DNA of 64,000 nucleotides, from positions 227,037-291,036 of the forward strand of contig JBAZNQ010000001.1 of the NCBI GenBank assembly GCA_041649135.1, in the 5' to 3' direction. A model generated the notes under the pieces. It was not told where the DNA came from. It searched no databases and worked only from the letters and a program-made list of their open reading frames with translations. A program made the translations under genes and the position numbers. The number at the start of each line of letters is the position of its first letter. Within the stretch, counting starts at the first letter, position 1. Positions 5,377-52,740 of this stretch are shown in pieces. This DNA comes from Patescibacteria group bacterium. Lineage in GTDB: Bacteria; Patescibacteriota; Kazan-3B-28.

Positions 5377-5838
5377 ATGGCTTCCAACCGTCACTTCGCC
5401 CGTATCCTCGTTATGCAAGCGCTTTACGAATGGCAACAGCGCGACAGTTTGGATTTAACCGAAATCATGAAGCGCCATTTGGACAAGCACGATTTCGAAG
5501 AAAATAATCTCTTATTCATTCACAAATTGGTCGATGGCCTAAAAAAACATTCGGAAGAAATCGATCAAGTCATCACCGTATCTGCGCCAGAGTGGCCAAT
5601 CGCCCAAATCGCTCAAGTCGACCTTGCCATTCTGCGATTGGCAATTTTTGAATTATTATTCGATGACGAAGTTCCACCGAAGGCCGCCATCAACGAAGCC
5701 GTTGAACTAGCCAAAGCCTTCGGCGGAGAAAACTCCAGCAAATTCGTGAATGGTGTACTTGGCACCGTTTTTCGTAATTCCACCAAATACAACCCCGAGA
5801 CCGACGAAAAAACTTCTCGTCCCAAACCTTTAGAATAA
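5377..5838 (+). CDS. nusB: Transcription antitermination factor NusB
   Basis: ARILVMQALYEW… and NEAVELAKAFGGENSSKFVNGVLG motifs. Confidence 0.85.
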   Translation: MASNRHFARILVMQALYEWQQRDSLDLTEIMKRHLDKHDFEENNLLFIHKLVDGLKKHSEEIDQVITVSAPEWPIAQIAQVDLAILRLAIFELLFDDEVPPKAAINEAVELAKAFGGENSSKFVNGVLGTVFRNSTKYNPETDEKTSRPKPLE

Positions 5839-8895: not shown

Positions 8896-9057
8896 GTCAT
8901 CCTCGAACCGATAGCGATAGCGCATCGATATCGAGGACCCAGACAGAAACAAAAACATTTTTCTTTTTTCTTTCTAGATTCCCGTTTTCCTCCCAAGGCG
9001 GACAGGTCACGGGAATGACGACGGGGAGACTAGATCCTGAACTAAATTCAGGATGAC
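8896..9057. repeat. Composite bipartite palindromic element (GTC-ATCCTCGA hairpin, CCAGACAGAAAC spacer, ATTCCCG hairpin, GAC, then an ATCCTGAA hairpin)
   Basis: Member of the element family catalogued in the findings. GTCAT/ATGAC termini and internal perfect stems. Confidence 0.7.
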
Positions 9058-11125: not shown

Positions 11126-11220
11126 CCTCGAGCCGACAGTATTAGCGAGTCGACATCGGGGATCCAGACAGAAACAAAAACATTTTTCTTTTCTGGATTC
11201 CCGCCTTCGCGGGAATGACG
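11121..11220. repeat. Composite bipartite palindromic element (GTC-ATCCTCGA hairpin, CCAGACAGAAAC…TTTCTGG spacer, ATTCCCGC hairpin, GAC)
   Basis: Near-identical architecture to 8896-9057, 44453-44535 and 52646-52740. Confidence 0.7.
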
Positions 11221-11306
11221 GATAAAAAATCATTAAAATGACTGCCAAAACCCATCTTCAGCAACCATACATCTTCATCCTACCCCGAAATTAATCTCGG
11301 GGCTAA

Positions 11307-12647
11307 TTATTGCTTTTCCATTGCCAAAATAATTTTATCGGCGGTTGCTTTACCGATCGCCGGCAATGCTATCAGTTCTTCTTTGGTCTTACCTTGCAAA
11401 TCAGCTCGTTTAGTAATCCCTGCTGTATTTAATTTTTTGATCATCGCTGGAGTTAGCCCCAAAGCCACCAAATCGCTTGTTCCATCGTCATTAGCTACAA
11501 CTAATCCTTCGGTTTTCTCAACTACCGCTGGCTTCTGCATGGCTTTCAAACTCAACCCCAATCGGTGGCTCTCTGCCCCCAAATCGATCACTTTCAGCTT
11601 CAGCTTGTCGTCCACCTTCACGACCGCACTCGGATCCACCACGTGTTCATGTGACAGCTCGGAGATATGGATCAAGCCATCAACCTTGCCATCAATTGAT
11701 ACAAACACACCAAATGGCATGATCTGTGTTACTCTCCCCGTCACCTCCTGCCCGATCTGAAAGTTCTTGATCGTTGTCAGCCATGGGTCGGCTTCCAACC
11801 GTTTCATTGACAAAGAAATCTTGTCTGCATCAATCGCGATCACTTGCACCCTAACCTTGTCGCCCACCTGCGCAAAGTTGCTCGGATGATCAACTTTACC
11901 CCAACTAATTTCAGAAATGTGTACCAACCCTTCCAGTTGACCAAGCGACACAAAAATCCCGAAATCAACTACGCCAGAGACAGAACCTTCCAACACATCA
12001 TTAACTTTGATGTCGGAAACTAATTCATCAAATTCACCCTTCCGCGCGATTTTCTCCGAGAAAATTAATTTGCTGGTGCTCTTGTCCAAATCCAAAACTT
12101 TCACTTGCATCATCTCGCCTTCAAATTTGGCTAATCGATTTAGAATCTCGTCCTTATCGTTACCGACTCTGGGATAATGTTCTGGCGCCAATTGTGAAAC
12201 CGGCAGGAAACCTCGCAAACCATCCGCTTCGACAATTAAACCACCACGATTTGCTTCCACCACCTTCACGTCGAAGACTTCGTCCTTGCCCCTGCGCTCT
12301 TCCAAAGCCGTCCACCCTTGATTTTCCAGCGCATCACGCAAACTCAAAATCATGAAGCCTTCGTCATTCTCCGGCATCAACACCGAAGCTGTTACCCGAT
12401 CACCGGCCTTGTAATCCGGCGCCGAGATCCCTTCTTCGGCTAATTCTTTATTGCTGATAATACCAATAAACCGACCATCATCAATATCGATCCAAATCCG
12501 ATTTTTGGTTACTGCTGTTACTTCACCTGCCACCAAATCACCGGATTGATAAATCTTCAAATCCCCCGCACTACTGTCGAGGTATTTAGCGAAGGCTGTC
12601 TTTGCGCCTTTGGGGGAAACCCCATCGGAGACTTTCGTCTTGGCCAT
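11307..12647 (-). CDS. rpsA: 30S ribosomal protein S1-like (four S1 domains plus a C-terminal helix-hairpin-helix)
   Basis: Repeated S1 OB-fold motifs (GDLVAGEV…, GDRVTASV…). C-terminal HhH GITKRADL…LPAIGKATA. Confidence 0.8.
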   Translation of the reverse strand: MAKTKVSDGVSPKGAKTAFAKYLDSSAGDLKIYQSGDLVAGEVTAVTKNRIWIDIDDGRFIGIISNKELAEEGISAPDYKAGDRVTASVLMPENDEGFMILSLRDALENQGWTALEERRGKDEVFDVKVVEANRGGLIVEADGLRGFLPVSQLAPEHYPRVGNDKDEILNRLAKFEGEMMQVKVLDLDKSTSKLIFSEKIARKGEFDELVSDIKVNDVLEGSVSGVVDFGIFVSLGQLEGLVHISEISWGKVDHPSNFAQVGDKVRVQVIAIDADKISLSMKRLEADPWLTTIKNFQIGQEVTGRVTQIMPFGVFVSIDGKVDGLIHISELSHEHVVDPSAVVKVDDKLKLKVIDLGAESHRLGLSLKAMQKPAVVEKTEGLVVANDDGTSDLVALGLTPAMIKKLNTAGITKRADLQGKTKEELIALPAIGKATADKIILAMEKQ

Positions 12648-12689
12648 CTTTATCTATTAGTTAATTAATATAGCTCCTGATACTTTGCC

Positions 12690-12718
12690 ACTATAAAGGA
12701 GGAGGTCGTCCCAGTCAA
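12690..12718 (-). promoter_or_regulatory. Sigma70-like promoter (TTGACT, 17 nt spacer, TATAGT) about 35 nt upstream of rpsA
   Basis: On the minus strand: TTGACTgggacgacctcctccttTATAGT. Confidence 0.4.
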
Positions 12719-12768
12719 GCTTATGGACAGTCAAAGACTAGTGGATTAGTGACTCTAACAGCCCAGTC

Positions 12769-12914
12769 GTCATTCTGGGGAGTTCTGCTGGGCAACAGAA
12801 CGACACCAGAATCGTATATTAAGATTCTAGATGCGCCCTCTCTCCTCTGTCCCAATGGGACTCCTTAGAGGCCGGGCTTGCTGCCCGCCCATCGGCAAGC
12901 AAACTAAGAATGAC
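12769..12914. repeat. Family-B palindromic element (GTCATTCTGG hairpin … CCAGAATC …), expanded/degenerate copy
   Basis: Termini and stems match 31836-31925 and 52529-52630. Confidence 0.5.
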
Positions 12915-13216
12915 GGAGTAGGAAAGATTTTTAAAAAACCTACGCCTACAGCCCACGGTTCCAATATTGACAAGAATTGTTTGTTGTGCTAACTTACAAG
13001 CACTTGGGGAAATCAACGTCCACCTCAAGTCTCTAGGGTCGGAGTGTGACCTATTCCGTATCTACTATTTGTTTATTGCCTGCGTGGCTATGGTCCTGCG
13101 GGAGACGGCCGCAGTACTGTGCTCTTCCCAAGGAAGAAATCAGCAATAACCGCGGTATTCGCTGCTCGGGAACAGGCGACCACCTTAGTTGCACCTGTAA
13201 ACAGATTCCCCGTCTA

Positions 13217-13251
13217 CCTCCGGATTTATCCGGAGGTTTTTATTTCCTTTT
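13217..13251 (+). terminator. Terminator-like hairpin CCTCCGGAT-tta-TCCGGAGG followed by TTTTTATTTCCTTTT
   Basis: Perfect 8-9-bp stem with a T-run on the plus strand. No protein gene ends here, so a putative ncRNA 3' end. Confidence 0.4.
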
Positions 13252-14042
13252 GCAAGAGAAAAACGGGCAAAATGGACTCCACTCAAGAATGTTCTTGCCC
13301 CTATTCATAGGAGAAAAACCAATAAACTGGCTCTGGACGCCCAAAAAAGTGTTGACAACCAGAATACTCTGTAATACACTAAAGCCAATATGCCCTGGTC
13401 GTTCATTCGACCAAAACTATAGGGCGTAGGGAGCAAGGTATGAATGTTTTATCGCAGAATTCCCCTCACCTTAACATTGTGAACAACACCGAACGGAACG
13501 CCGGCAACGGCGACGCGAGCGACGGCAGCAGGACCAGGTCCTGAACGGCCGCGGCCCGGTGCGGGTTGACGAGAACTAGCAGCGCGGAGTGCCAAACAGG
13601 CAAAGCTCCTCGGTGACACCCTGCAACCCGCAAACAACCAAGCAGCAACCAAGAGGAGGCTAGATGTATAATCCACCGGACTAGTTAATAACTCCCCAAC
13701 CTGTATAAATAACGACGTGGTTGTGGGAGTGGTGAGACATAAGCGCAGGGGCACCAAGGCCTTTGAGCCTGACGCCCACCAGGAGACTGGAAAAAATGCG
13801 CAGTAACAACCAGCGGCAACACAGTCAGCTACTGTGTACTCGACCCCCGGCCTGTAATGGGTGCGGGGGACAATAGGGAGAACTCTTCCTTCGACGCTAG
13901 TGAGGAATACTGCCGAGGCCATTGGCAACTCGGTAACATCGAATTTCCTCCAGCCTCCCGAAGGGAGAACGAACCCCGAAAAACACAACCTAAACAGCAA
14001 CATTGTTTGAACCTTGTGGACCAACGACGAATAGTCTAAGCA

Positions 14043-14067
14043 GGGCGCCCCTCTGGGCGCCCTTTTT
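14043..14067 (+). terminator. Terminator-like hairpin GGGCGCC-loop-GGCGCCC followed by TTTTT
   Basis: GC-only 7-bp stem with a T5 run on the plus strand. It closes the GC-rich noncoding island. Confidence 0.4.
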
Positions 14068-14091
14068 CGTATCCAAATTCTAAACTTCTCT

Positions 14092-14508
14092 TTATTTTTT
14101 ATCCAAATACCGACGGAGATACTTTTCCTTCTCTTGTCCGGTAATTTTGCTTGCCCGCTTCTTCGGAAAATCTACCCGCGCGAACTTAATGATCAAACCC
14201 GCTTGTACTAACGCATAAATGATTATCAGCACCGGCCAAAACCTCCACGACAAATACCTAATTCCCTCATATCGGAAAAACAGCCAAACCAGCATTAACC
14301 AACCAAACACATTTGCTGCAGCCACCGACTTCAGAATCACTTGTCTTTGCAAAAATGCTAATTTCTTGGTTCGGTTTGGTACGATCATCACCGCCACGAT
14401 CAACCCTACCAATAACCCCACGATCACCCAGTATCCCCAACCCCAAAATGTCATCGACAAATTGCTGTCGAAATAATAAGTCCAGTTAAAGATATTAGCG
14501 AAAGACAT
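14092..14508 (-). CDS. Hypothetical integral membrane protein (about 4 TM helices)
   Basis: Hydrophobic helices and a K/R-rich C-terminal tail. No recognised family. Confidence 0.55.
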   Translation of the reverse strand: MSFANIFNWTYYFDSNLSMTFWGWGYWVIVGLLVGLIVAVMIVPNRTKKLAFLQRQVILKSVAAANVFGWLMLVWLFFRYEGIRYLSWRFWPVLIIIYALVQAGLIIKFARVDFPKKRASKITGQEKEKYLRRYLDKK

Positions 14509-14593
14509 AGTAGTTTAACTTTTAAGATTAAATATTTTTCTCGTCATTCTCTGACTTACCTGCCCGACTAGGGACCAGAATCTTACCCCCAGT

Positions 14594-14771
14594 CGTCATT
14601 CTGGCTTGTCCAGAATCTTATCAATAACAATATATTCTTGTATCGTCATCCTCGCTTGCGTTAGCCCTCCGTAGCTCGTAGAGCGAAGGACGGGTCGAGG
14701 ATCGTATAATCCTATCCGATTCCTTGGCCGCGACCGCAGACAGGCTGGAGTCGCTTTGCTCCCCAGAATGA
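14594..14771. repeat. Two or three concatenated palindromic elements (family B GTCATTCTGG hairpin, then GTCATCCTCG…CGAGGATCG, then a family-B 3' half)
   Basis: GTCAT…ATGAC termini. Shared segments with 9084-9169. Confidence 0.6.
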
Positions 14772-14795
14772 CGAGAACACTCCTCACTCCTCACT

Positions 14796-17700
14796 CTATT
14801 TCAATCTCCTTCTAACAAAACTATTCGAACTCTTTTTGGTCTGCAGCCTGGAAGTTGCCTTAGCCGTTGCTCGCTTAGCCAATTTCCGAGTCGTGAAACC
14901 AGATTTCTTCGAGGTTGATTTAACAATTGGCTTTTTCGATAACACCTTTTTCTTAAATACTGGCACAGGCTTCTTGACCACTCCTGACCGTTTGCTTACT
15001 CGACTAGGAACCATCTTTTTAATAACCGCCCGCTTGGCAACTGGTTTAATGACTTTCTTCTTAGCAACTGGCTTAATTTTTTTAGCTGCAGGTTTTACTA
15101 TCGCTGTTTTAGTCGCTACCACTCTTGCCGGCTTTACTTTTTTAACCTTAGTCGCAGTTGGCTTCGCTTTTATTACTTTCTCCGAGACACCTTTTGAATT
15201 GTCAGATACTCGCCCTGCATAGTTCTGCTTTTTTGCAGAACGAAGCATGGGTTCTTCGCCCTCTTCCTCAATTATTTCCTCACCAGAGTCTTCCATATCT
15301 TCCACCTCCGCTTCATGAACCTCGGGCTTGGGTAATTTTGCCAATTCTGCTTCAGTTAATTCTTCATTTGGATTAGTTAGTTTACCATCCGCCTCTTCCA
15401 TAAACAGTACCGTAAATGACGCCACATGGTCGCTAGCATTCTTCATTCGCATCAATCGGACACCTTGAGTTGCCCGACCTAGCGTTGGCACGGTTTTCAA
15501 TGGCAAGCGAATGATCTGACCTTCGGTCGAAGTTATGATCACATCCGCCACCAAAGTTCTCTCCACCAGTTTCGCCCCAATCACCTTCCCAGTCTTGGCT
15601 GTTACTTGCATGGTTTTTATCCCCACACCACCACGATGTTGTAAAGTGTATTGCGACAACAGAGTCTGTTTACCCAAACCATTCGCCGACACCACGAACA
15701 ATGCCGCCGGAATCCCCTTGCGGGCCACATCCGCCCCGATCACTTCATCATCTTTCCGCAGTTTAATCGCTCGCACCCCACGAGTTGATCGTCCCAGCGG
15801 CCTCGCATCGCTCTCCTTGAATTTTATCGACTGACCATCTTTGGTGATGATCATCACTTCGTCATCTTTTTGGCTCTTGCGCACCCATTTCAATTCATCT
15901 CCCTCATCCAATTTGATCGCAATTAAGCCATTACTACGAATGTTGGCATAAGCCGCGGTCGCTGTCTTTTTGATCACCCCTTGTTTGGTGATCATCACAA
16001 AATCACCCGACCAAGCCTTCTCTGGCATCGCCAGTAAAGCCGTTACTTTTTCCTCGGGCGCTAGCTGGATCACATTAACTGCCGCTGTCCCACGAGCAAT
16101 TCTGGACGCCTGTGGAATTTCAAATACCTTCTGGCGGAAAACCCGACCCCGATTAGTGAAGAACAAAATATCATCATGGTTTTTCGCTACCTGAATCGTC
16201 GAGATCTGGTCTTCTTCTTTGGTCGTCATCCCGATCACGCCCTTACCACCACGACGTTGTGTCCGATATTCATTAATTGACTGACGTTTAATGTAATTGC
16301 CAACCGACATTGTCACCACAACTTCCTCGTTCGGGATCAAATCCATGTCCGTAAAATCACCTACTGTCTTGCCGCTCATCTGTGTCCGACGCTTATCACC
16401 ATACCGATTTTTGATCTCCTGACACTCGGTTCTGATCAAGCCATCAATTTTTTTAGGATCTTTTAAAATTGCTTTCAATTCTGCGATCAACTTCTGCTTT
16501 TCAAGATATTCATCCTCAACTTTCTTCCGCTCCAGACCAGCCAAAGCCGACAACCGCATTTCCAAAATTGCCGAAGCCTGCAGTTCGGATAATTTGAACT
16601 TTTTTATCAAATTAGCATGCGCTTCTTCTTTGGTCGCCGATTTCTTGATCGTCGAAATGACCGCATCAAGATTATCTAAAGCGATCTTGAGCCCCTCCAA
16701 AATATGCGCCCGCTCTTCCGCTTTCTTTAATTCAAATTGAGTTCGACGAGTGATCACCACTCGTCGATGGTTCAAAAACTGTAACAATGCTTCCGCTAAA
16801 TTAAATACTCTCGGCTGGATACCGTTCTCCAACGCCAGCAAATTCATATGAAAAGTCGACTGCAACGGCGTCAGCTTAAATAATTGGTTTAGGATCTTTT
16901 TTGGATAAGCGTCTTTTTTCAGATCTACTACTACCCGAATTCCGTCCCGATCCGATTCATCCCGCAGATCGGCCACCCCGATCAATTTTTTCTCTTTCAC
17001 CAAATCGGCAATTCTCGTTACCATTTCGGCCTTGTTCACCTGGAATGGCAACTCCGAAATGACGATCCGATGAGCATTTCCGTCTTCTTCGATCTCTGCC
17101 ACCCCTCGCGTTACCACCTTGCCCTTACCAGTCGCATAAGCTTCCCGAATGTCTTTGGAATTAAAAATGATCCCGCCCGTCGGAAAGTCCGGCCCCGGGA
17201 TAAACTCCATTAATTTATCAACATCTGCGTCTGGAAAATCGATCAGATACATAATGGCATCCAACATTTCGCCCAAATTATGTGGCGGGATCGACGTCGC
17301 CATACCCACCGCGATCCCCATTGTGCCGTTTAGTAATAGTTGGGGAATTTTGGTCGGCAACACATCCGGCTCTTTTTTGGTGTTGGAATAGTTATCATGA
17401 AAATCGACTGTATCTTTATCCAAATCCGCCAACACCTCTTCGGCGATGGCTGTCATTTTGGCTTCGGTATATCGCATAGCAGCCGGACTGTCACCATCGA
17501 TCGAACCAAAGTTTCCCTGACCATCAACTAATGGATACCGCATACTCCACGGTTGAGCTAACCGCACCAACGTGTCATAGACCGCCATATCACCATGGGG
17601 GTGATAGAACGCGATTACACCACCAACCACCTCCGCGCTTTTGCGATATTTGACATTGTGTCGTAACCCCGATTCCCCCATCGAAAACAAAATCCGCCGG

Positions 17701-17840
17701 TGAACCGGCTTCATGCCATCCCGCACATCAGGAAGCGCTCGCGCCACGATCACACTCATTGCGTAATCCAAATAGGATTGCCGCATTTCGGTGTTGATCG
17801 ATCGGAGATTTACCTTCCCAATATTTTTGTCTTCATCCAT
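14796..17840 (-). CDS. gyrA: DNA gyrase subunit A with a ~180-aa Lys-rich (KPAAKK-type) C-terminal tail
   Basis: GyrA N-terminal catalytic domain (active-site Tyr region, AAMRYTE) and beta-pinwheel repeats. Histone-H1-like lysine-rich extension. 1014 aa. Confidence 0.95.
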   Translation of the reverse strand: MDEDKNIGKVNLRSINTEMRQSYLDYAMSVIVARALPDVRDGMKPVHRRILFSMGESGLRHNVKYRKSAEVVGGVIAFYHPHGDMAVYDTLVRLAQPWSMRYPLVDGQGNFGSIDGDSPAAMRYTEAKMTAIAEEVLADLDKDTVDFHDNYSNTKKEPDVLPTKIPQLLLNGTMGIAVGMATSIPPHNLGEMLDAIMYLIDFPDADVDKLMEFIPGPDFPTGGIIFNSKDIREAYATGKGKVVTRGVAEIEEDGNAHRIVISELPFQVNKAEMVTRIADLVKEKKLIGVADLRDESDRDGIRVVVDLKKDAYPKKILNQLFKLTPLQSTFHMNLLALENGIQPRVFNLAEALLQFLNHRRVVITRRTQFELKKAEERAHILEGLKIALDNLDAVISTIKKSATKEEAHANLIKKFKLSELQASAILEMRLSALAGLERKKVEDEYLEKQKLIAELKAILKDPKKIDGLIRTECQEIKNRYGDKRRTQMSGKTVGDFTDMDLIPNEEVVVTMSVGNYIKRQSINEYRTQRRGGKGVIGMTTKEEDQISTIQVAKNHDDILFFTNRGRVFRQKVFEIPQASRIARGTAAVNVIQLAPEEKVTALLAMPEKAWSGDFVMITKQGVIKKTATAAYANIRSNGLIAIKLDEGDELKWVRKSQKDDEVMIITKDGQSIKFKESDARPLGRSTRGVRAIKLRKDDEVIGADVARKGIPAALFVVSANGLGKQTLLSQYTLQHRGGVGIKTMQVTAKTGKVIGAKLVERTLVADVIITSTEGQIIRLPLKTVPTLGRATQGVRLMRMKNASDHVASFTVLFMEEADGKLTNPNEELTEAELAKLPKPEVHEAEVEDMEDSGEEIIEEEGEEPMLRSAKKQNYAGRVSDNSKGVSEKVIKAKPTATKVKKVKPARVVATKTAIVKPAAKKIKPVAKKKVIKPVAKRAVIKKMVPSRVSKRSGVVKKPVPVFKKKVLSKKPIVKSTSKKSGFTTRKLAKRATAKATSRLQTKKSSNSFVRRRLK

Positions 17841-25992: not shown

Positions 25993-26000
25993 GCACCTTC

Positions 26001-26075
26001 TGGCTGGGGCGGCAGGGATCGGACCTGCGAATCACGGGACCAAAACCCGTTGCCTTACCACTTGGCTACGCCCCA
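26001..26075 (-). tRNA. tRNA-Gln (anticodon UUG), CCA encoded
   Basis: Reverse complement reads UGGGGCGUAGCCAAGUGGUAAGGCAACGGGUUUUGGUCCCGUGAUUCGCAGGUCCGAUCCCUGCCGCCCCAGCCA. 7-bp acceptor stem with U1-A72, anticodon loop UUUUGGU, T-arm GCAGG/CCUGC, 3' GCCA. Resembles E. coli tRNA-Gln (UGGGG…CCCCAGCCA). Confidence 0.85.
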
Positions 26076-26175
26076 TCAATATCTAGATTATACCTTACTG
26101 CGACCAATAATTTAGCCCCACCTTGGTCATGGACAGCCATAGGGACAAGCTGTATCATAACGGCATCTCGGCAAC

Positions 26176-26403
26176 TTGCCAATGGAGCATAGAATGAACC
26201 TTTTCACTAGTGTCACCCTGATTGATCTGGGCATCTGTACCGCAGTAGGGTTGGGCTTGTTCTGGACACATGATCCCAACGTATTATGGGCACTGCTCAT
26301 AATTTTATGGGTTGGCGGCGAATGTACCCCCAGACCAACCCATGCCACCTGTCCCAAATGTAGTCATTTCTTCGCCTTGAAAGAGTCGAAGACAAAAGAC
26401 TAA
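26176..26403 (+). CDS. Hypothetical small membrane protein with a C-terminal CPKC
   Basis: One or two TM segments. Followed by a good plus-strand terminator. Confidence 0.35.
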   Translation: MPMEHRMNLFTSVTLIDLGICTAVGLGLFWTHDPNVLWALLIILWVGGECTPRPTHATCPKCSHFFALKESKTKD

Positions 26404-26447
26404 GACGATGAATAGTTGTCAAACAGGACCCAAACAAACCAGTAGAG

Positions 26448-26477
26448 GCGTCTAAATCACAATTTAGACGCTTTTTT
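26448..26477 (+). terminator. Rho-independent terminator GCGTCTAAA-loop-TTTAGACGC followed by T6
   Basis: 9-bp stem and a TTTTTT run. Confidence 0.55.
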
Positions 26478-26484
26478 ATACCCC

Positions 26485-26513
26485 TTGACACTCCTTCCCT
26501 CTCTTAGTATCAT
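26485..26513 (+). promoter_or_regulatory. Sigma70-like promoter (TTGACA, 17 nt spacer, TATCAT) upstream of the ArsR-family gene
   Basis: Consensus -35, 17-nt spacer and a -10 with a 5/6 match. Confidence 0.4.
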
Positions 26514-26587
26514 TTAGACAGTTGACTAAATATCTAATTATATTACCCACCCGCTAATTCCTAGTCCCTAACCCCTAATTCCTAGTT

Positions 26588-26851
26588 ATGAGTGCTGTTT
26601 CCAAAGCCTTTCAAGCCTTATCTGACCCAACCCGACGGGACATTCTTCAACTATTAAAAAAACACGATATGACACCCAGCGAATTGACCATCCACTTCCC
26701 TATCTCCGGTCCCTCCCTCTCTCACCATTTAAGTGTTTTAAAACAAGCCAACCTCATCACCGCTGAAAAACATGGCCAAAACATTCTCTACTCAATTAAC
26801 ACCACCGTCTTCTACGATATTATTAATGGCTTCATGGAAAGTTTTAAATGA
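26588..26851 (+). CDS. ArsR/SmtB-family HTH transcriptional regulator (SdpR-like)
   Basis: LSDPTRRDILQLL…LSHHLSVLKQANLI signature. Confidence 0.75.
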   Translation: MSAVSKAFQALSDPTRRDILQLLKKHDMTPSELTIHFPISGPSLSHHLSVLKQANLITAEKHGQNILYSINTTVFYDIINGFMESFK

Positions 26852-26893
26852 AGCCCCTCCGACCTAATCGGAGGTCCAAACCGAAACAAGAAA

Positions 26894-27181
26894 ATGACTA
26901 ATTCATATGTATATATCACAACCACTCAAATTAACGGAACGCTCTATGTCGGAGCAACTGGAAACCTAAAGAATCGTGTCTATCATCATCGGCTAGAAAA
27001 TCTAAACCATTTTACAAATAAACACAGGGTTGACCGATTAGTTTATTACGAGATACACCTCACGCCAGAAAGCGCATTTGCCCGAGAAAAACAACTCAAG
27101 AAATGGAACCGTAGCTGGAAAATAAAACTCATTGAAACAAAAAACCCAAGCTGGAAAGATTTATATCAAGATTTTTGTTAA
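26894..27181 (+). CDS. GIY-YIG nuclease family protein (YhbQ/UPF0213-like, 95 aa)
   Basis: YVYI…NGTLYVGATGNLKNRVYHH GIY-YIG core, then the conserved Glu and the LKKW motif. Confidence 0.8.
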   Translation: MTNSYVYITTTQINGTLYVGATGNLKNRVYHHRLENLNHFTNKHRVDRLVYYEIHLTPESAFAREKQLKKWNRSWKIKLIETKNPSWKDLYQDFC

Positions 27182-29117: not shown

Positions 29118-30716
29118 TTAATTTCGACTCATTTTGGGACCGCTTGAGGTATCCTCTACCGCAAAACCTAATCTACTAATTTGTGTGCGAAGCTGGTCTG
29201 CCTTTTTCCAATTCTTAGCCTGACGCGCTTTTTCCCGCTCTGCTACCAGTTTTTTCACCTCCACGGGAATCGTTAATGGCTTATCATCTTTCAGCCCCAG
29301 CCCCAACACTCTATCGAAATCCAGTAGGGTGGTCTGCTTATCAGCCAATGACTTTTTTGATTTCACTAACTCCCAAACTACCGCCATCGCCTTTGACATA
29401 TTCAAATCATCATTCAGAGCCGACCCGAACCGTTTTTTGTATGTTGCGTCCACTTTCCCCTTGCCATTCTCCTGCTGTACAGCAGGACGGGAATCCATTT
29501 TTGTTTTTCCTGTCTGGATCCCCGATCGAGTCGGGGATGACGAGGAAGAGATGCTGAATACAGCTCGAAGTTTATTCAAGGAATTGCTAGCACCTTCCAA
29601 TGCCTGCAACGAGAACACAAGGTTACTACGATAATGGCTACCAATCGCCAAGTAACGAAAAGCAATTGGATCAACTTCATTTTTTACTAAATCAGCCAGA
29701 TTAATAACATTGCCTTTACTTTTTGACATCTTAATCATACCCATTTCTTCACCGCAAACTCCGCACTTGCCACAATAAACCAAAGTACCATCTGGTAGTC
29801 TCTTTCTAACTAGCTTTCTCTTGCTGATAGATGTTTCATGCCCCTTGCTACATACCATTTTATTGCTTACCCAGCCAATAAAACTCAATGGATCAATTAC
29901 CATAAAGGCATTATGGAACCAATATTTTGCCAACGGCTTATTGTATGCCGCTTCGCTTTGCGCAATTTCATTATTGTGATGTGTCGCAATATGATCCTCT
30001 CCGCCAGTATGAATATCAAATGGTTGACCTAATTCTTTAGTAGAAATTGCCGAACATTCAATATGCCAGCCCGGATACCCCACCCCCCAAGGAGATTTCC
30101 ACTCCTGTTGCCGTTTTTCTGTTCCAGAAAACTTCCACAGCGCAAAATCGGTCTGCCTCTTCTTTTCCTTGCTGTGCGCCACCCTCGCTCTGCTCGAAGA
30201 CCCCCCAAAGCCTTGGCGAAGGGGGGCCAGCTTGCCGTATCCCTTAAATTTTGCGGTATCAAAATAAATCCCATCAGTAGTTTTGTATGTGTATCCCTTT
30301 TTCTCTAATTTTTTAATTAAAGCTATTTGTTCCTTGATGTACTTACTCGCCCATGCAAATTTCACCGGCATTTCAATATTCAACGCTTTCAAATCTTTCA
30401 TAAACTGCTCGGCATAAAACTTGGTAATTTCCTTCGCGGTTTTGTGCTCTTTCTTTGCTTCTCGTTCTACCTTGTCTTCGCCCGTATCCGCATCAGACGT
30501 TAAATGCCCAACATCCGTAATATTCATTACCTGTTTCACTTTGTAGCCGTTGTATTCCAAAGTTCGGCGCAAAATATCTTCCGCCAAATATGCTCGTAGA
30601 TTACCGATATGCGCATACTGATACACTGTTGGTCCGCAGGTGTACATCGAAACCTGGCCTTTCTTCAAAGGCCTAAATTCCTGCTTCTTCCGACCTAGTG
30701 TATTGAATAGCTTCAT
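29118..30716 (-). CDS. cysS: Cysteine--tRNA ligase (532 aa) carrying an in-frame palindromic-element insertion in the linker before the anticodon-binding domain
   Basis: HIGN, KMSKS (KMSKSKGN) and a zinc-binding Cys. A ~25-aa extra segment is encoded at 29455-29541 by a GTCATCCCCGA…palindromic element. Confidence 0.9.
   Translation of the reverse strand: MKLFNTLGRKKQEFRPLKKGQVSMYTCGPTVYQYAHIGNLRAYLAEDILRRTLEYNGYKVKQVMNITDVGHLTSDADTGEDKVEREAKKEHKTAKEITKFYAEQFMKDLKALNIEMPVKFAWASKYIKEQIALIKKLEKKGYTYKTTDGIYFDTAKFKGYGKLAPLRQGFGGSSSRARVAHSKEKKRQTDFALWKFSGTEKRQQEWKSPWGVGYPGWHIECSAISTKELGQPFDIHTGGEDHIATHHNNEIAQSEAAYNKPLAKYWFHNAFMVIDPLSFIGWVSNKMVCSKGHETSISKRKLVRKRLPDGTLVYCGKCGVCGEEMGMIKMSKSKGNVINLADLVKNEVDPIAFRYLAIGSHYRSNLVFSLQALEGASNSLNKLRAVFSISSSSSPTRSGIQTGKTKMDSRPAVQQENGKGKVDATYKKRFGSALNDDLNMSKAMAVVWELVKSKKSLADKQTTLLDFDRVLGLGLKDDKPLTIPVEVKKLVAEREKARQAKNWKKADQLRTQISRLGFAVEDTSSGPKMSRN
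29455..29541 (-). repeat. Bipartite palindromic element inserted in frame within cysS
   Basis: Minus-strand sense: GTCATCCCCGA-ctcgat-CGGGGAT, CCAGACAGGAAAAACAAAAATGG, ATTCCCGTCC… This is the same architecture as the intergenic copies. Confidence 0.65.
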
Positions 30717-30724
30717 ATTTTTTC

Positions 30725-30853
30725 TTTCTGGATTCCCGCCTTCGCGGGAATGACGAGAAGGGAACGACTTAATGTATTAAATAGTTTTAGTATTTTTCGC
30801 CTGGTCATCCTGAATTAATTTCAGGATCTAGATTCTGAAACAAGTTCAGAATG
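30725..30853. repeat. Two palindromic elements (GATTCCCGCcttcGCGGGAATGAC, and a family-C element with ATCCTGAA and ATTCTGAA hairpins)
   Basis: Family termini and architecture. Confidence 0.6.
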
Positions 30854-31801: not shown

Positions 31802-31835
31802 CATAGACAGAACTACTCCTTCACGATTTCTGTTC

Positions 31836-31925
31836 GTCATTCTGGCTTGCCTGCCCGCCTTGGGAGGGACCAGAATCTTATCGAATATCTATACGATTCT
31901 GGATGCGCTTCGCTTACCAGAATGA
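31836..31925. repeat. Family-B bipartite palindromic element (two ATTCTGG/CCAGAAT hairpins between GTC and GAC)
   Basis: Near-identical to 52529-52630. Confidence 0.7.
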
Positions 31926-41292: not shown

Positions 41293-41490
41293 GTTTAGAC
41301 GAACAGACCCGACGACTGGCGGGACGCTTTGGTTACTTTGGCAAGACAAAGTAACCGCGGTACAAGGGTCGCGCAGACCATTGAAAAGAAAAAAGAAAAT
41401 ATTATAAGATTCTGGTCAAGCCAGAATGACGAGCTTAAAGATAGCCCTCGGTTCCTCGGGGACACAAAACACAAAACCACAAAAGAAAAC

Positions 41491-44297: not shown

Positions 44298-44452
44298 AAA
44301 TGATAAAAAATCTAAATTCTAATCTCTAAATCCCAAACAAATTCCAAATCCTCCAGAAAATCCTAAACTCGAAATTCTAAATCCTAAACAAATTCTAAAT
44401 TCTAAATTCTAATGCTTCAAACGTTTTCTCTGTCATTCCCGCTCTCTTCTTC

Positions 44453-44535
44453 GTCATTCCCGCGTAGGCGGGAATCCAGACAGAAACAGAAAAAAGTTTT
44501 TGTTTGTTTTGCTTTCTGGATCCTCCGGTCAAGCC
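44453..44535. repeat. Composite bipartite palindromic element (GTC-ATTCCCGC hairpin, CCAGACAGAAAC…TTTCTGG spacer, ATCCTCCGG hairpin, GAC)
   Basis: Twin of 52646-52740. A partial extra GTCATTCCCGC lies at 44432. Confidence 0.7.
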
Positions 44536-44618
44536 GGAGGATGACGAGTTTTATTTTAATCATTGGTATTTCGTGCTTCGGATTTGTTTAGTATTTCGAA
44601 TTTATTCACCCATCATCT

Positions 44619-48972: not shown

Positions 48973-49263
48973 AAATTAGCGCAGGCGAAGGCGTTGTTTG
49001 ACCCATCCCCAATTTTGTTTTTCGCGTAGCCCGTCGTCTGTGTCCGCCATAGCCTTGGCGATGGTGGAAGCTCGTAGAGCGAAGTCGGGTCATTCTGAAC
49101 CCTGGCTGCATCCCGCACCCGCGGGCAAACTGGTTTCAGGGTCTCTAGCCAATTTTGTTTCTATTCGTCATTCTGAACTAGTTTCAGAATCTAGATGCTG
49201 AACTAAATTCAGCATGACAAAACTGGTAATGGGAAGTTCTCCGAGAACGAAGAAAGCTAATTT
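48973..49263. repeat. MITE-like element copy 2 (AAATTAGC … GCTAATTT), expanded to 291 bp by nested palindromic-element insertions (e.g. family C at 49167-49218)
   Basis: The ends match copy 1. The interior contains GTCATTCTGAAC-type hairpins. Confidence 0.6.
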
Positions 49264-52528: not shown

Positions 52529-52740
52529 GTCATTCTGGCTTGCCTGCCCGCCTTGGGAGGGACCAGAATCTTATTAAAAACATCTATACGATTCTGGATG
52601 CGGTCGCCATGACGACCTTACCAGAATGACGAGACACTCTTCATCGTCATTCCCGCGTAGGCGGGAATCCAGACAGAAACAGAAAAAGATTTATTGTTTA
52701 TTGTTCTTTTCTGGATCCCCGGGTCAAGCCCGAGGATGAC
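52529..52740. repeat. Family-B element (52529-52630) directly followed by a composite ATTCCCGC / ATCCCCGGG-hairpin element (52646-52740)
   Basis: Near-identical to the 31836-31925 and 44453-44535 copies. Confidence 0.7.

Follow-up and report, generated by a model that had tools for sequence, protein, structure and literature searches.

Which function, if any, resides in the 1444 nt that separate rpsA from memb138, the gene for a membrane-like protein, in the genome of an uncultured CPR bacterium (Kazan/Patescibacteria)? This gap (12648-14091) is without a credible ORF, and the retention of 1 kb of noncoding DNA in very small genomes suggests that it has a function. To our knowledge, almost nothing is known about the ncRNAs of bacteria from the Candidate Phyla Radiation, and we know of few extensively structured bacterial RNAs of more than 500 nt. 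The gap was analysed within the window, i.e. the whole stretch of 64 kb of DNA, and by comparison with up to 77 related loci; its features are collected in Table 1.

We consider it reasonably likely that the gap is lineage-specific DNA at a variable memb138-rpsA junction and carries two independent ncRNA genes on the plus strand. These units, termed U1 and U2, are probably new, lineage-restricted ncRNA genes that match no known family. Being neither a known RNA nor a decayed gene, they represent a credible but unproven lead to new RNAs.

Table 1. Features of the rpsA-memb138 gap and its flanks. Positions refer to the window.
Feature	Position	Strand	Elements or basis of assignment
rpsA	11307-12647	minus	Pfam S1 domains; one flank of the gap
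rpsA 5′ UTR and promoter	12648-12718	minus	-35 TTGACT (12718-12713), -10 TATAGT (12695-12690); promoter scan
REP-like hairpin repeat copy	12767-12813	plus	TCGTCATTCTGG...CCAGAATC; dispersed repeat family
U1 promoter	12967-12995	plus	TTGACA, 17 nt, TAACTT; TGc extended -10
U1, structured small RNA candidate (~240 nt)	13002-13245	plus	Covariance model R1 and compensatory changes
U1 intrinsic terminator	13216-13237	plus	9-bp stem, then TTTTTATTT; T-run on plus strand only
Upstream module of U2	13307-13351	plus	ATAGGAGAAAAACCAATAAACTGGCTCTGGACGCCCAAAAAAGTG; A-tract/UP-like element, conserved across lineages
U2 promoter	13352-13380	plus	TTGACA, 17 nt, TACACT; promoter scan 10/12
U2, highly folded GC-rich, A-rich RNA candidate (~685 nt)	13387-14070	plus	Fold stability; without conserved ORF
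34-codon ORF near U2 5′ end	13440-13544	plus	GGGAG ahead of start
191-aa ORF, antisense to U2	13449-14024	minus	Mechanical ORF; gene callers: 184-aa 'hypothetical protein' (three assemblies)
Local-hairpin block (165 nt)	13696-13860	plus	In window strain, missing from sister strain L057
U2 intrinsic terminator	14042-14063	plus	9-bp stem with 8 GC pairs, then TTTTTCG; T-run on plus strand only
memb138, membrane-like 138-aa ORF	14092-14508	minus	Other flank of the gap; stop codon at 14092

Two gene-like units

The GC content is 0.53-0.61 over 13400-13999, compared to 0.40-0.50 in the flanks and 0.453 in the whole window, and the GC-rich core described in an earlier note on this DNA is thus confirmed. 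The complete gap sequence was found with 100% identity on contigs of two further samples; in a third sample, 998 nt are covered. An assembly artefact is ruled out because the gap sequence is identical in three independent assemblies.

The anatomy of both units is gene-like. Each has a perfect promoter site ahead of it, and after 240 nt (U1) or 685 nt (U2) there is a GC-rich hairpin of 9 bp whose T-run is found on the plus strand only. The two plus-strand terminators reported before are real and strong, and are placed here at 13216-13237 and 14042-14063. Perfect TTGACA-N17-TAnnnT sites occur four times in the 64 kb, where 0.56 are expected, and two of the four are in the gap, both on the plus strand. 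One of these is the TTGACA...TAACTT site at 12967-12995 that had already been noted; it fails the -10 rule of the promoter scan, yet it is among the four perfect sites, and its elements are conserved in two other lineages. The other one, which is the best promoter-like site of the region, had been overlooked. With this second promoter at 13352-13380, the gap resolves into two separate plus-strand units, and the notion that the GC-rich core is part of one block behind a single promoter had to be abandoned.

In this reading, both genes are equipped with near-consensus sigma-70-type promoters and strong intrinsic terminators of their own. The promoter hexamers appear to be kept by selection, as they are conserved among relatives while the spacers diverge (U1: L058, L034; U2: L053, L027, L057). 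Neither of the plus-strand terminators is followed by a gene on the same strand, the next gene being memb138, which is convergent. As only this convergent end lies downstream, it is improbable that U1 or U2 serves as an mRNA or a cis-leader. U1 would be transcribed divergently from rpsA as a stand-alone structured small RNA, and both units would most likely work in trans through their folds, be it as scaffolds that bind proteins or as regulators. A 9-bp complementarity between U1 (13091-13099) and U2 (13528-13536) is, by our estimate, compatible with chance in 1.4 kb.

Coding potential of the gap

A coding signal is lacking throughout the gap. All gap ORFs have codon-usage scores of -0.2 to -0.43 per codon (34 window genes: +0.32 ± 0.16), nine of them were compared to Pfam together with memb138 without a meaningful match, and frames are broken in the sister strain L057. 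The earlier statement that 12648-14091 has no credible ORF therefore holds.

The GC-rich core could nevertheless be a decayed or horizontally acquired protein gene, represented by the 191-aa ORF on the minus strand or by a pseudogene on the plus strand. That a protein was called here in three assemblies, and that the GC content departs from that of the genome, speaks for this possibility. However, a phmmer search of the 191-aa ORF against 1.84 billion representative proteins recovered nothing beyond copies of the ORF itself, its counterpart in L057 and a single weak match (25% identity, in multiple stretches), and a word-indexed search of 5.8 billion clusters had the same outcome, without a true homologue. 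The ORF has no Pfam match, its sense-strand purine fraction is 0.44 (0.56 ± 0.04 for genes), its codon score is -0.22, and it is shortened and frameshifted by the indels in L057. Six-frame fragments of the gap had no tblastn match in the 77 related loci, including the genes inserted there, and BLAST searches against phages and plasmids for distant matches, with the gap as query, found none. We judge the 191-aa ORF to be spurious. The protein-gene reading, which the earlier note had considered in the form of a foreign or pseudogenised fragment, is already largely refuted and we regard it as very improbable.

Alternatively, U2 might be the mRNA for a 34-aa protein with a long structured 3′ region. 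The GGGAG is located 6-9 nt ahead of this ORF, and L057 retains start, stop and frame through the patch of greatest divergence (33 codons, with a net 3-nt indel). In relatives, this locus offers parallels in the form of units with small ORFs behind strong Shine-Dalgarno sites: in L027, the promoter module known from U2 precedes a 59-aa membrane ORF with two helices, and L001 and L003 have ORFs of ~51-57 codons behind a common AAAGGAG-ATG. On the other hand, both strains have a codon score of -0.43 per codon here, far under that of every gene in the window. Thirteen of 33 residues differ, with one synonymous change among the kept residues (counted by eye), and the peptide is hydrophilic, of low complexity and without a Pfam match. 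Furthermore, 34 open codons are not improbable by chance in T-poor sequence, and ~520 nt of the transcript would be left unexplained. A small-protein mRNA is therefore considered distinctly unlikely.

Comparison with known RNA families

At the gathering score, no Rfam family was matched in the gap or in 12 related loci; a tRNA-Gln (26001-26075) was the one RNA detected in the window. When 12500-14250 was searched on both strands at E <= 10, terminator-like fragments were the only result. The models for 6S, RNase P, tmRNA, SRP, ROOL, GOLLD and OLE as well as those for riboswitches had no match in the gap even at E <= 10. For raiA, HEARO/IscB omega RNA and group I/II introns, no Rfam model match was obtained in the window or in the 12 related loci, and ARAGORN detected no tmRNA in the gap.

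CPR genomes are divergent and only few CPR sequences are contained in Rfam seed alignments. It is thus conceivable that U1 or U2 is a version of a known RNA too divergent for the models to recognise (6S, RNase P, tmRNA, SRP, OLE, ROOL, GOLLD, raiA or an IscB/TnpB guide RNA), and the size of U1 would fit a 6S RNA. Apart from the negative model searches, this is opposed by the lack of conservation of the 6S-type closing helix and by the fact that many close relatives have neither unit, unlike what is expected for a housekeeping RNA at a fixed locus. We consider it highly unlikely that a known family has escaped detection.

The relation to 6S RNA (RF00013 and related) deserves attention, since a ~240-nt 6S-like hairpin closed by the helix GGGGAAATC/GATTCCCC had been proposed for this region. 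U1 resembles 6S RNA in being a stand-alone unit of ~200-240 nt with an intrinsic terminator at its end. The proposed helix does exist as a pair in the window, and it is also paired in L057. It is, however, lost in two of the three lineages, L058 and L034, where gaps or mismatches interrupt it, and shows no covariation. U1 is predicted to be multi-branched, whereas 6S RNA is a long hairpin with a central bubble. The 6S-like hairpin was therefore rejected.

A riboswitch or another type of cis-leader was not supported either, as U1 (in L034 and L058) and U2 precede the convergent memb138 and not a gene on the same strand. U1 is also not a leader of U2, as it occurs without U2 in L034 and L058.

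U1, a small RNA candidate with compensatory changes

Covariance model R1, which represents U1, has matches in the window (12997-13245), in L057, in L058/L026/L059, and in L034/L076/L077. Full-length copies occur solely at the same locus position, in three related Kazan lineages. Compensatory changes were found in 13 of 45 pairs, compared to 5.5 ± 1.8 in shuffled alignments and 0-2 in slid controls, with three independent lineages only contributing to this count; 95.9% of the cells in the alignment are paired. The minimum free energy is on par with that of shuffled sequence (z = -0.15).

Two hairpins, one of them at the 5′ end, and a three-way-junction domain make up the predicted fold, and the domain contains the invariant segments GAAGACGGC, GGGAACAG and CCGUCU; the 5′ hairpin and this domain represent the conserved fold. 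The loop GAAGACGG may pair via AGACGG with CCGUCU just 5′ of the terminator, both segments being invariant. The terminator stem (helix 8) is preserved in L058 and L034 via compensatory changes, and in both of these the convergent end of memb138 follows directly after the terminator. The -35 element and the TGcTAnnnT extended -10 element are also kept in these two lineages, the counterparts being TTGACA/TGCTAAGCT in L058 and TTGAGC/TGCTACAAT in L034, with divergent spacers. A sequence pattern derived from U1 had five matches in IMG/VR, every one of which was rejected by R1.

U2, a long RNA candidate with excess fold stability

U2 is more stably folded than shuffled sequence (z = -5.3 for the whole unit). 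When the terminator is excluded, z is -4.8, a value reached by none of 120 shuffles, while the antisense strand has a z of only -2.45. Local z-scores on the plus strand are below zero all along 13501-14001. A accounts for 49% of the unpaired bases and GC for 69% of the paired ones; U2 would be composed of GC-rich helices joined by A-rich linkers. The earlier proposal of one or more structured ncRNAs is in this way supported for both units, by covariation for U1 and by thermodynamics that favour the sense strand for U2.

U2 is known from one species only among the up to 77 related loci, and the two strains of this species differ considerably. The indels in L057 are +1, +1, -1, +11, +15, +3, +6, -165, -1, -6 and -1 nt, and blocks with ~90-95% identity are found beside blocks with ~55% identity. 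The terminator is the same in L057 and is convergent with the memb138 stop codon. In the predicted helices, all 12 one-sided changes keep a G-U or standard pair and four pairs are compensated, the structure being derived from the same alignment. Such values are reached by 31 of 500 shuffles, and the two variants are too few for covariation. A covariance model for the U2 3′ domain (R2), with which the nearest lineages were searched without filters, found nothing credible, the best match (E = 0.026) being inside a coding region.

Rapid evolution and tolerance of large indels, as seen in U2, would also be expected of neutral DNA. It could be that U2, and possibly the spacers, are neutral DNA at a hot spot for insertion and recombination, maybe transcribed and functionless: leftover foreign or duplicated sequence that came to lie by chance between an inherited promoter and a terminator. 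The restriction to one species, the loss or gain of a 165-nt block together with many smaller indels between two strains, the GC content of 0.55-0.61 in a genome with 0.45, the extreme plasticity of the junction and the recombination mosaicism around the locus all speak for this reading. However, the excess of fold stability favours the sense strand, and A-rich loops combined with GC-rich stems are unexpected in random or decayed DNA. Neither the promoter hexamers nor the terminator have been damaged, and both are conserved. In blocks of 80-120 nt, identity between the strains is 92-95% despite ~18% synonymous divergence at third positions of memb138, which served as the neutral yardstick, and no donor was found in the phage, plasmid or viral collections searched. 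We therefore consider neutral DNA unlikely and prefer to interpret U2 as an ncRNA gene candidate.

With the GC-IGR approach, orphan large or high-ranking ncRNA candidates have been found in long GC-rich intergenic regions, examples being OLE, ROOL, GOLLD and raiA (PMC6429828, PMC8632094, PMC11109978). U2 is similar to these in being located in a long intergenic region with a GC content above that of the genome, in having its own promoter and terminator but no ORF, and in its many predicted helices and A-rich unpaired segments. It differs from OLE, ROOL, GOLLD and raiA in that it has no sequence or structure match to them, is found in one species, and has big blocks that come and go between strains.

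Another comparison is offered by CsrB/CsrC, RsmX/Y/Z and CrcZ/CrcY, which have a common upstream activating region or promoter and divergent RNA bodies. In a similar way, the ~45-nt block and promoter of U2 are better kept than the transcribed bodies, and multi-hairpin bodies of varying size are predicted behind this module in the Kazan clade. A CsrB-like sponge was rejected, as GGA is not enriched in U2, where it occurs 14 times (14.0 ± 2.7 expected) and AGGA four times (3.4 expected). A moderate enrichment was found only for AAC, CAAC and GCAAC, and these motifs are not all retained in L057.

The junction in related genomes

The memb138-rpsA junction is an insertion hot spot that is very plastic among relatives, with recombination mosaicism around the locus. 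It has only 50-90 nt in L065-L069, where both units are missing. Protein genes are found there in L008, L021, L063/64 and L027, and unrelated small cassettes in L053, L061, L001 and L003. L053 has an RNA candidate of ~530 nt (z = -7.8), a hairpin module of which resembles 13820-13871, the 3′ part of the 165-nt block of U2, with collinear matches. When up to 77 related loci were searched with the gap by blastn and nhmmer, alignments other than those to same-species copies were confined to the rpsA promoter, part of U1 and the U2 promoter module.

The module upstream of U2 is found in L053 with 94% identity over 35 nt, and in L027 its identity is 80%. The promoter hexamers are kept in both of these and the spacer is not, and the promoter together with the ~45-nt upstream block is also present in L057. 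In L057 the module is doubled, and the duplicate precedes a different RNA of ~90 nt (predicted); L058 has a remnant without a -35 element. Within the window, the module is unique, and its pattern has no matches in IMG/VR. The module is possibly a regulator-binding site. It appears that a conserved upstream module drives differing cargo in different lineages, and U2 would be one case where promoter and module were reused by related lineages for other cargo.

This observation can be extended to a cassette-like 'RNA island', in which the cargo would comprise U2, the RNA candidates of L053 (~530 nt) and L057 (the extra one of ~90 nt) as well as the units found in L027 and L061, with U1 as a conserved companion. 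A promoter/upstream module of ~45-70 nt would be duplicated and recombined ahead of fast-diversifying RNAs built from hairpin modules, all at one chromosomal hot spot. If true, the island would be a system that generates and exchanges large structured RNAs in Kazan-group CPR bacteria. We offer this as speculation that is quite unlikely to be correct.

As many relatives have neither of the units, neither RNA is essential to the clade, and neither U1 nor U2 is a core function of it. Their impact is limited by a narrow distribution, which comprises three lineages for U1 and one species for U2. If transcribed, U1 and U2 would represent two additional RNA families in a group whose genomes are very small. 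The conserved promoter module ahead of differing cargo in neighbouring lineages is a concrete entry point to further ncRNAs of CPR bacteria.

The rpsA promoter and 5′ UTR, which do not belong to the RNAs, form a block of ~70 nt. It is the sole segment of the gap kept across all relatives, and this block marks the left boundary of the 'extra' DNA. The segment at 12767-12813 is a copy of a REP-like dispersed intergenic hairpin repeat. The pattern TCGTCATYCY-N8-38-RGRATC occurs 13 times in the window, where 0.02 copies are expected. U1 and U2 differ from this family of repeats in being single-copy in the window. A 17-nt exact repeat of the REP-like segment is found at 14588-14604.

Two candidate RNA genes in a gene-free gap

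The source organism is an uncultured member of the Patescibacteria (CPR) from the candidate division Kazan lineage; relatives of its S1 protein (11307-12647, minus strand) come from MAGs labelled Kazan, Patescibacteria or "Saccharibacteria", and the gene order gyrA - memb138 - rpsA - infB is kept throughout relatives. The 1444 nt gap between memb138 and rpsA, described as gene-free in the earlier note, is indeed the longest ORF-poor stretch in the window, and its GC-rich core is equally real (0.53-0.61 over 13400-13999, whereas the flanks have 0.40-0.50 and the window as a whole 0.453). On the plus strand, A is in strong excess over T. Contigs of two other samples contain the complete gap at 100% identity, and a third sample has 998 nt of it, so it is not an assembly artefact. 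The best-supported reading, which we consider probable, is that the gap carries two lineage-restricted ncRNA genes, U1 and U2, for which transcription is predicted.

Features of the memb138-rpsA gap and of related loci (window positions unless a locus is named)
Feature	Position	Strand	Remarks
rpsA 5′ UTR and promoter	12648-12718	minus	sole part of the gap conserved in all relatives
Hairpin repeat	12767-12813		dispersed; one of 13 copies in the window (0.02 expected)
U1	promoter 12967-12995, RNA ~13002-13245, terminator 13216-13237	plus	
Conserved upstream module	13307-13351		~45 nt, between U1 and the U2 promoter
U2	promoter 13352-13380, RNA ~13387-14070, terminator 14042-14063	plus	
memb138	14092-14508	minus (convergent to U2)	138-aa membrane-like ORF
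Other hairpin repeat sites	8977-9021, 14541-14617, 29517-29543, 30731-30756, 31834-31877, 41408-41432, 44451-44547, 49165-49191, 52590-52669		
Module cargo	L053:305-838	minus	~530-nt ORF-free unit, z = -7.8 (reached by 0 of 100 shuffles)
Module cargo	L027		~155-nt leader and 59-aa two-helix membrane ORF
Module cargo	L057:899-1137	minus	extra 238-nt cassette: second module copy, ~90-nt RNA, terminator
Module cargo	L061		~150-nt unit
U1 lineage 1			window's species: L057 (98% identical), L060
U1 lineage 2			L058, L026, L059; rpsA 80% identical
U1 lineage 3			L034, L076, L077; rpsA 78% identical

The TTGACA...TAACTT site reported earlier is present upstream of U1, though it fails the -10 rule of the scanner, while a better-scoring site upstream of U2 (TTGACA-N17-TACACT) had been overlooked. 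There are four perfect TTGACA-N17-TAnnnT sites in the 64 kb (0.56 expected), and two of them, both on the plus strand, are the U1 and U2 promoters. The two plus-strand terminators, already recognized before, are strong, each with a 9-bp stem that is followed by a T-run on the plus strand only. U2 ends 22 nt short of the stop codon of the convergent memb138.

The junction is a hot spot

Between memb138 and rpsA, the spacer is 50-90 nt in L065-L069 and 110-530 nt in many other relatives. Protein-coding insertions (L008, L021, L063/L064, L027) and other short promoter-to-terminator units (L053, L061, L001, L003) occur at this junction, which is a hot spot. As the spacers of relatives are short or differently filled, the 1.4 kb of the window are lineage-specific extra DNA rather than ancestral. 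Compared to the window, the sister strain of the same species (L057) is 99-100% identical in rpsA and infB and just 91% in memb138, and L060 is 100% identical in the gap and about 90% in gyrA; 12648-17840 is a recombination mosaic inside the species.

At the junction, small ORFs with strong Shine-Dalgarno sites were seen in L027 (minus strand, 171-350 and 701-1075; the 59-aa membrane ORF and a 124-aa ORF) and in L001 (~5650-5820) and L003 (~51-57 codons). The latter two have promoter, Shine-Dalgarno site and ATG in common and are unrelated further downstream.

Coding potential of the gap

By codon-usage log-likelihood trained on 34 window genes, all gap ORFs score below zero (-0.20 to -0.43 per codon), whereas genes score +0.32 ± 0.16, with a minimum of -0.14, and memb138 scores +0.30. 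The sense strand of the 191-aa minus-strand ORF annotated by gene callers is rich in pyrimidines (purine fraction 0.44, as opposed to 0.56 ± 0.04), and the ORF has no Pfam match. Searches of 5.8 billion clusters and 1.84 billion representatives recovered the ORF's own copies, its L057 counterpart and a single multi-stretch match with 25% identity, but no other homologue. Six-frame fragments of the gap do not match the genes inserted at the locus in relatives, and nothing in phage and plasmid collections resembles the gap. A pseudogene or foreign coding fragment, which had been considered earlier, is thus not supported.

A minor alternative is that a 34-codon ORF (13440-13544) behind GGGAG is translated. 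In L057, where it has 33 codons, start, stop and frame persist through the patch that diverges most. Both strains score -0.43 for its codon usage; the encoded peptide is hydrophilic and of low complexity, and the strains differ at 13 of 33 residues.

U1

U1 homologues occur in three lineages with unchanged position and orientation. In the promoter, the -35 and the extended -10 (TGCTAACTT, TGCTAAGCT, TGCTACAAT) are kept while the 14 nt between them are divergent. The RNAalifold consensus folds into two hairpins, one of them at the 5′ end, and a three-way-junction domain that GCCUG/CAGGC closes, in addition to the terminator. Of the cells, 95.9% are paired, with both-side changes in 13 of 45 pairs (column shuffles, 5.5 ± 1.8; partner-slid controls, 0-2). 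With only three lineages, this covariation is good but not conclusive. Fold stability is unremarkable (z = -0.15 without and -1.65 with terminator). Loop GAAGACGG, GGGAACAG, and CCGUCU directly before the terminator are single-stranded and do not vary, which suggests loop-tail pairing or binding sites; their invariance precludes a covariation test. U1 is thus a candidate structured RNA of ~240 nt with comparative support, in line with the structured ncRNAs of the earlier note. The 6S-like hairpin also proposed there is rejected, because its closing helix GGGGAAATC/GATTCCCC is confined to the window's species.

In L034 and L058 the convergent memb138 end directly follows U1, which rules out U1 as the leader of any gene, U2 included. 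A search with the U1 covariance model through ~0.5 Mb of related loci and through viral contigs brought up no additional copy. For both U1 and U2, the most likely mode of action would be in trans, in the form of a folded RNA.

U2

U2 (685 nt) is much more stable than dinucleotide shuffles (z = -5.3 for the whole unit; -4.8 without terminator, a stability reached by 0 of 120 shuffles; -2.45 for the antisense strand), and 200-nt windows on the plus strand have negative z throughout 13501-14001. In the minimum-energy fold, 49% of unpaired bases are A and 69% of paired bases are G+C, a partition typical of structured RNAs.

A true homologue was found only in L057, reached via a spurious ORF match; the model of the conserved 3′ domain has no match in other lineages. 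Third positions of the adjacent memb138, taken as the neutral yardstick, diverge by ~18%; by that measure U2 is a mosaic, with ~90-95% identity at 13498-13576 and 13862-13981, ~55% at 13418-13497 and 13982-14021, and indels of +1, +1, -1, +11, +15, +3, +6, -165, -1, -6 and -1 nt. Pairing in the joint structure survives all 12 one-sided substitutions, and four pairs are compensated; this carries little weight for two sequences from which the structure itself was derived. The 165-nt block, made up of local hairpins, is specific to the window; in its 3′ part, 13820-13871 is similar to a hairpin module of the L053 RNA, which hints at modular exchange. The main rival would make U2 neutral DNA carried along as a passenger at a hot spot of recombination; this seems unlikely to us. 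We favour U2 as a candidate ~685-nt RNA that is highly folded in the models, fast-evolving, and placed under a conserved, reusable promoter module.

The promoter module and its cargo

L053 matches this module (AAACTGGCTCTGGAnGCCCAAAAAAGTG followed by TTGACA) at 94% identity over 35 nt, and L027 matches it at 80%. The module is present twice in L057, where direct module repeats of ~55-70 nt flank the cassette just upstream of U2, and it persists without its -35 in L058, which lacks U2. The cargo differs between lineages, and the module is better conserved than what lies downstream. This pattern fits a promoter that carries an UP element or a regulator site and has been duplicated or recombined before varied cargo. 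The L053 RNA, folded even more strongly than U2, has a single hairpin module in common with it. In L053 (S1 84% identical), a (GATACTA)n tandem repeat follows the ~530-nt unit.

Known RNA families

None of the Rfam families scores above threshold, either in the window or in 12 related loci, and relaxing the cut-off to E <= 10 brings up only terminator look-alikes. ARAGORN found no tmRNA. A CsrB-type sponge is disfavoured by the lack of enrichment in GGA motifs; AAC, CAAC and GCAAC show moderate enrichment (z = 3.5-4.3). Our literature searches turned up no CPR counterpart. Long GC-rich intergenic regions have been successfully exploited by the GC-IGR pipeline (PMC6429828, PMC8632094, PMC11109978), and the same logic applies to this gap.

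Other features of the window

The hairpin repeat family (TCGTCATYCY-(8-38 nt)-RGRATC) is intergenic, and its exact-pattern copies are dispersed over both strands. A variant at ~11205-11230, just upstream of infB, lies inside the mechanical 633-aa infB ORF, to which gene callers assign 592 aa. Past its usual C-terminal domain, GyrA (14796-17840) has a Lys/Val/Pro-rich tail of roughly 170 residues. A third perfect promoter-like site (TTGACA-N17-TATCAT, 26485-26513, plus strand) is located in a 900-nt gap (25993-26893) near tRNA-Gln (26001-26075); the next ORF on the plus strand starts ~380 nt downstream, at 26894. The site is a possible promoter of another ncRNA or of a long leader.
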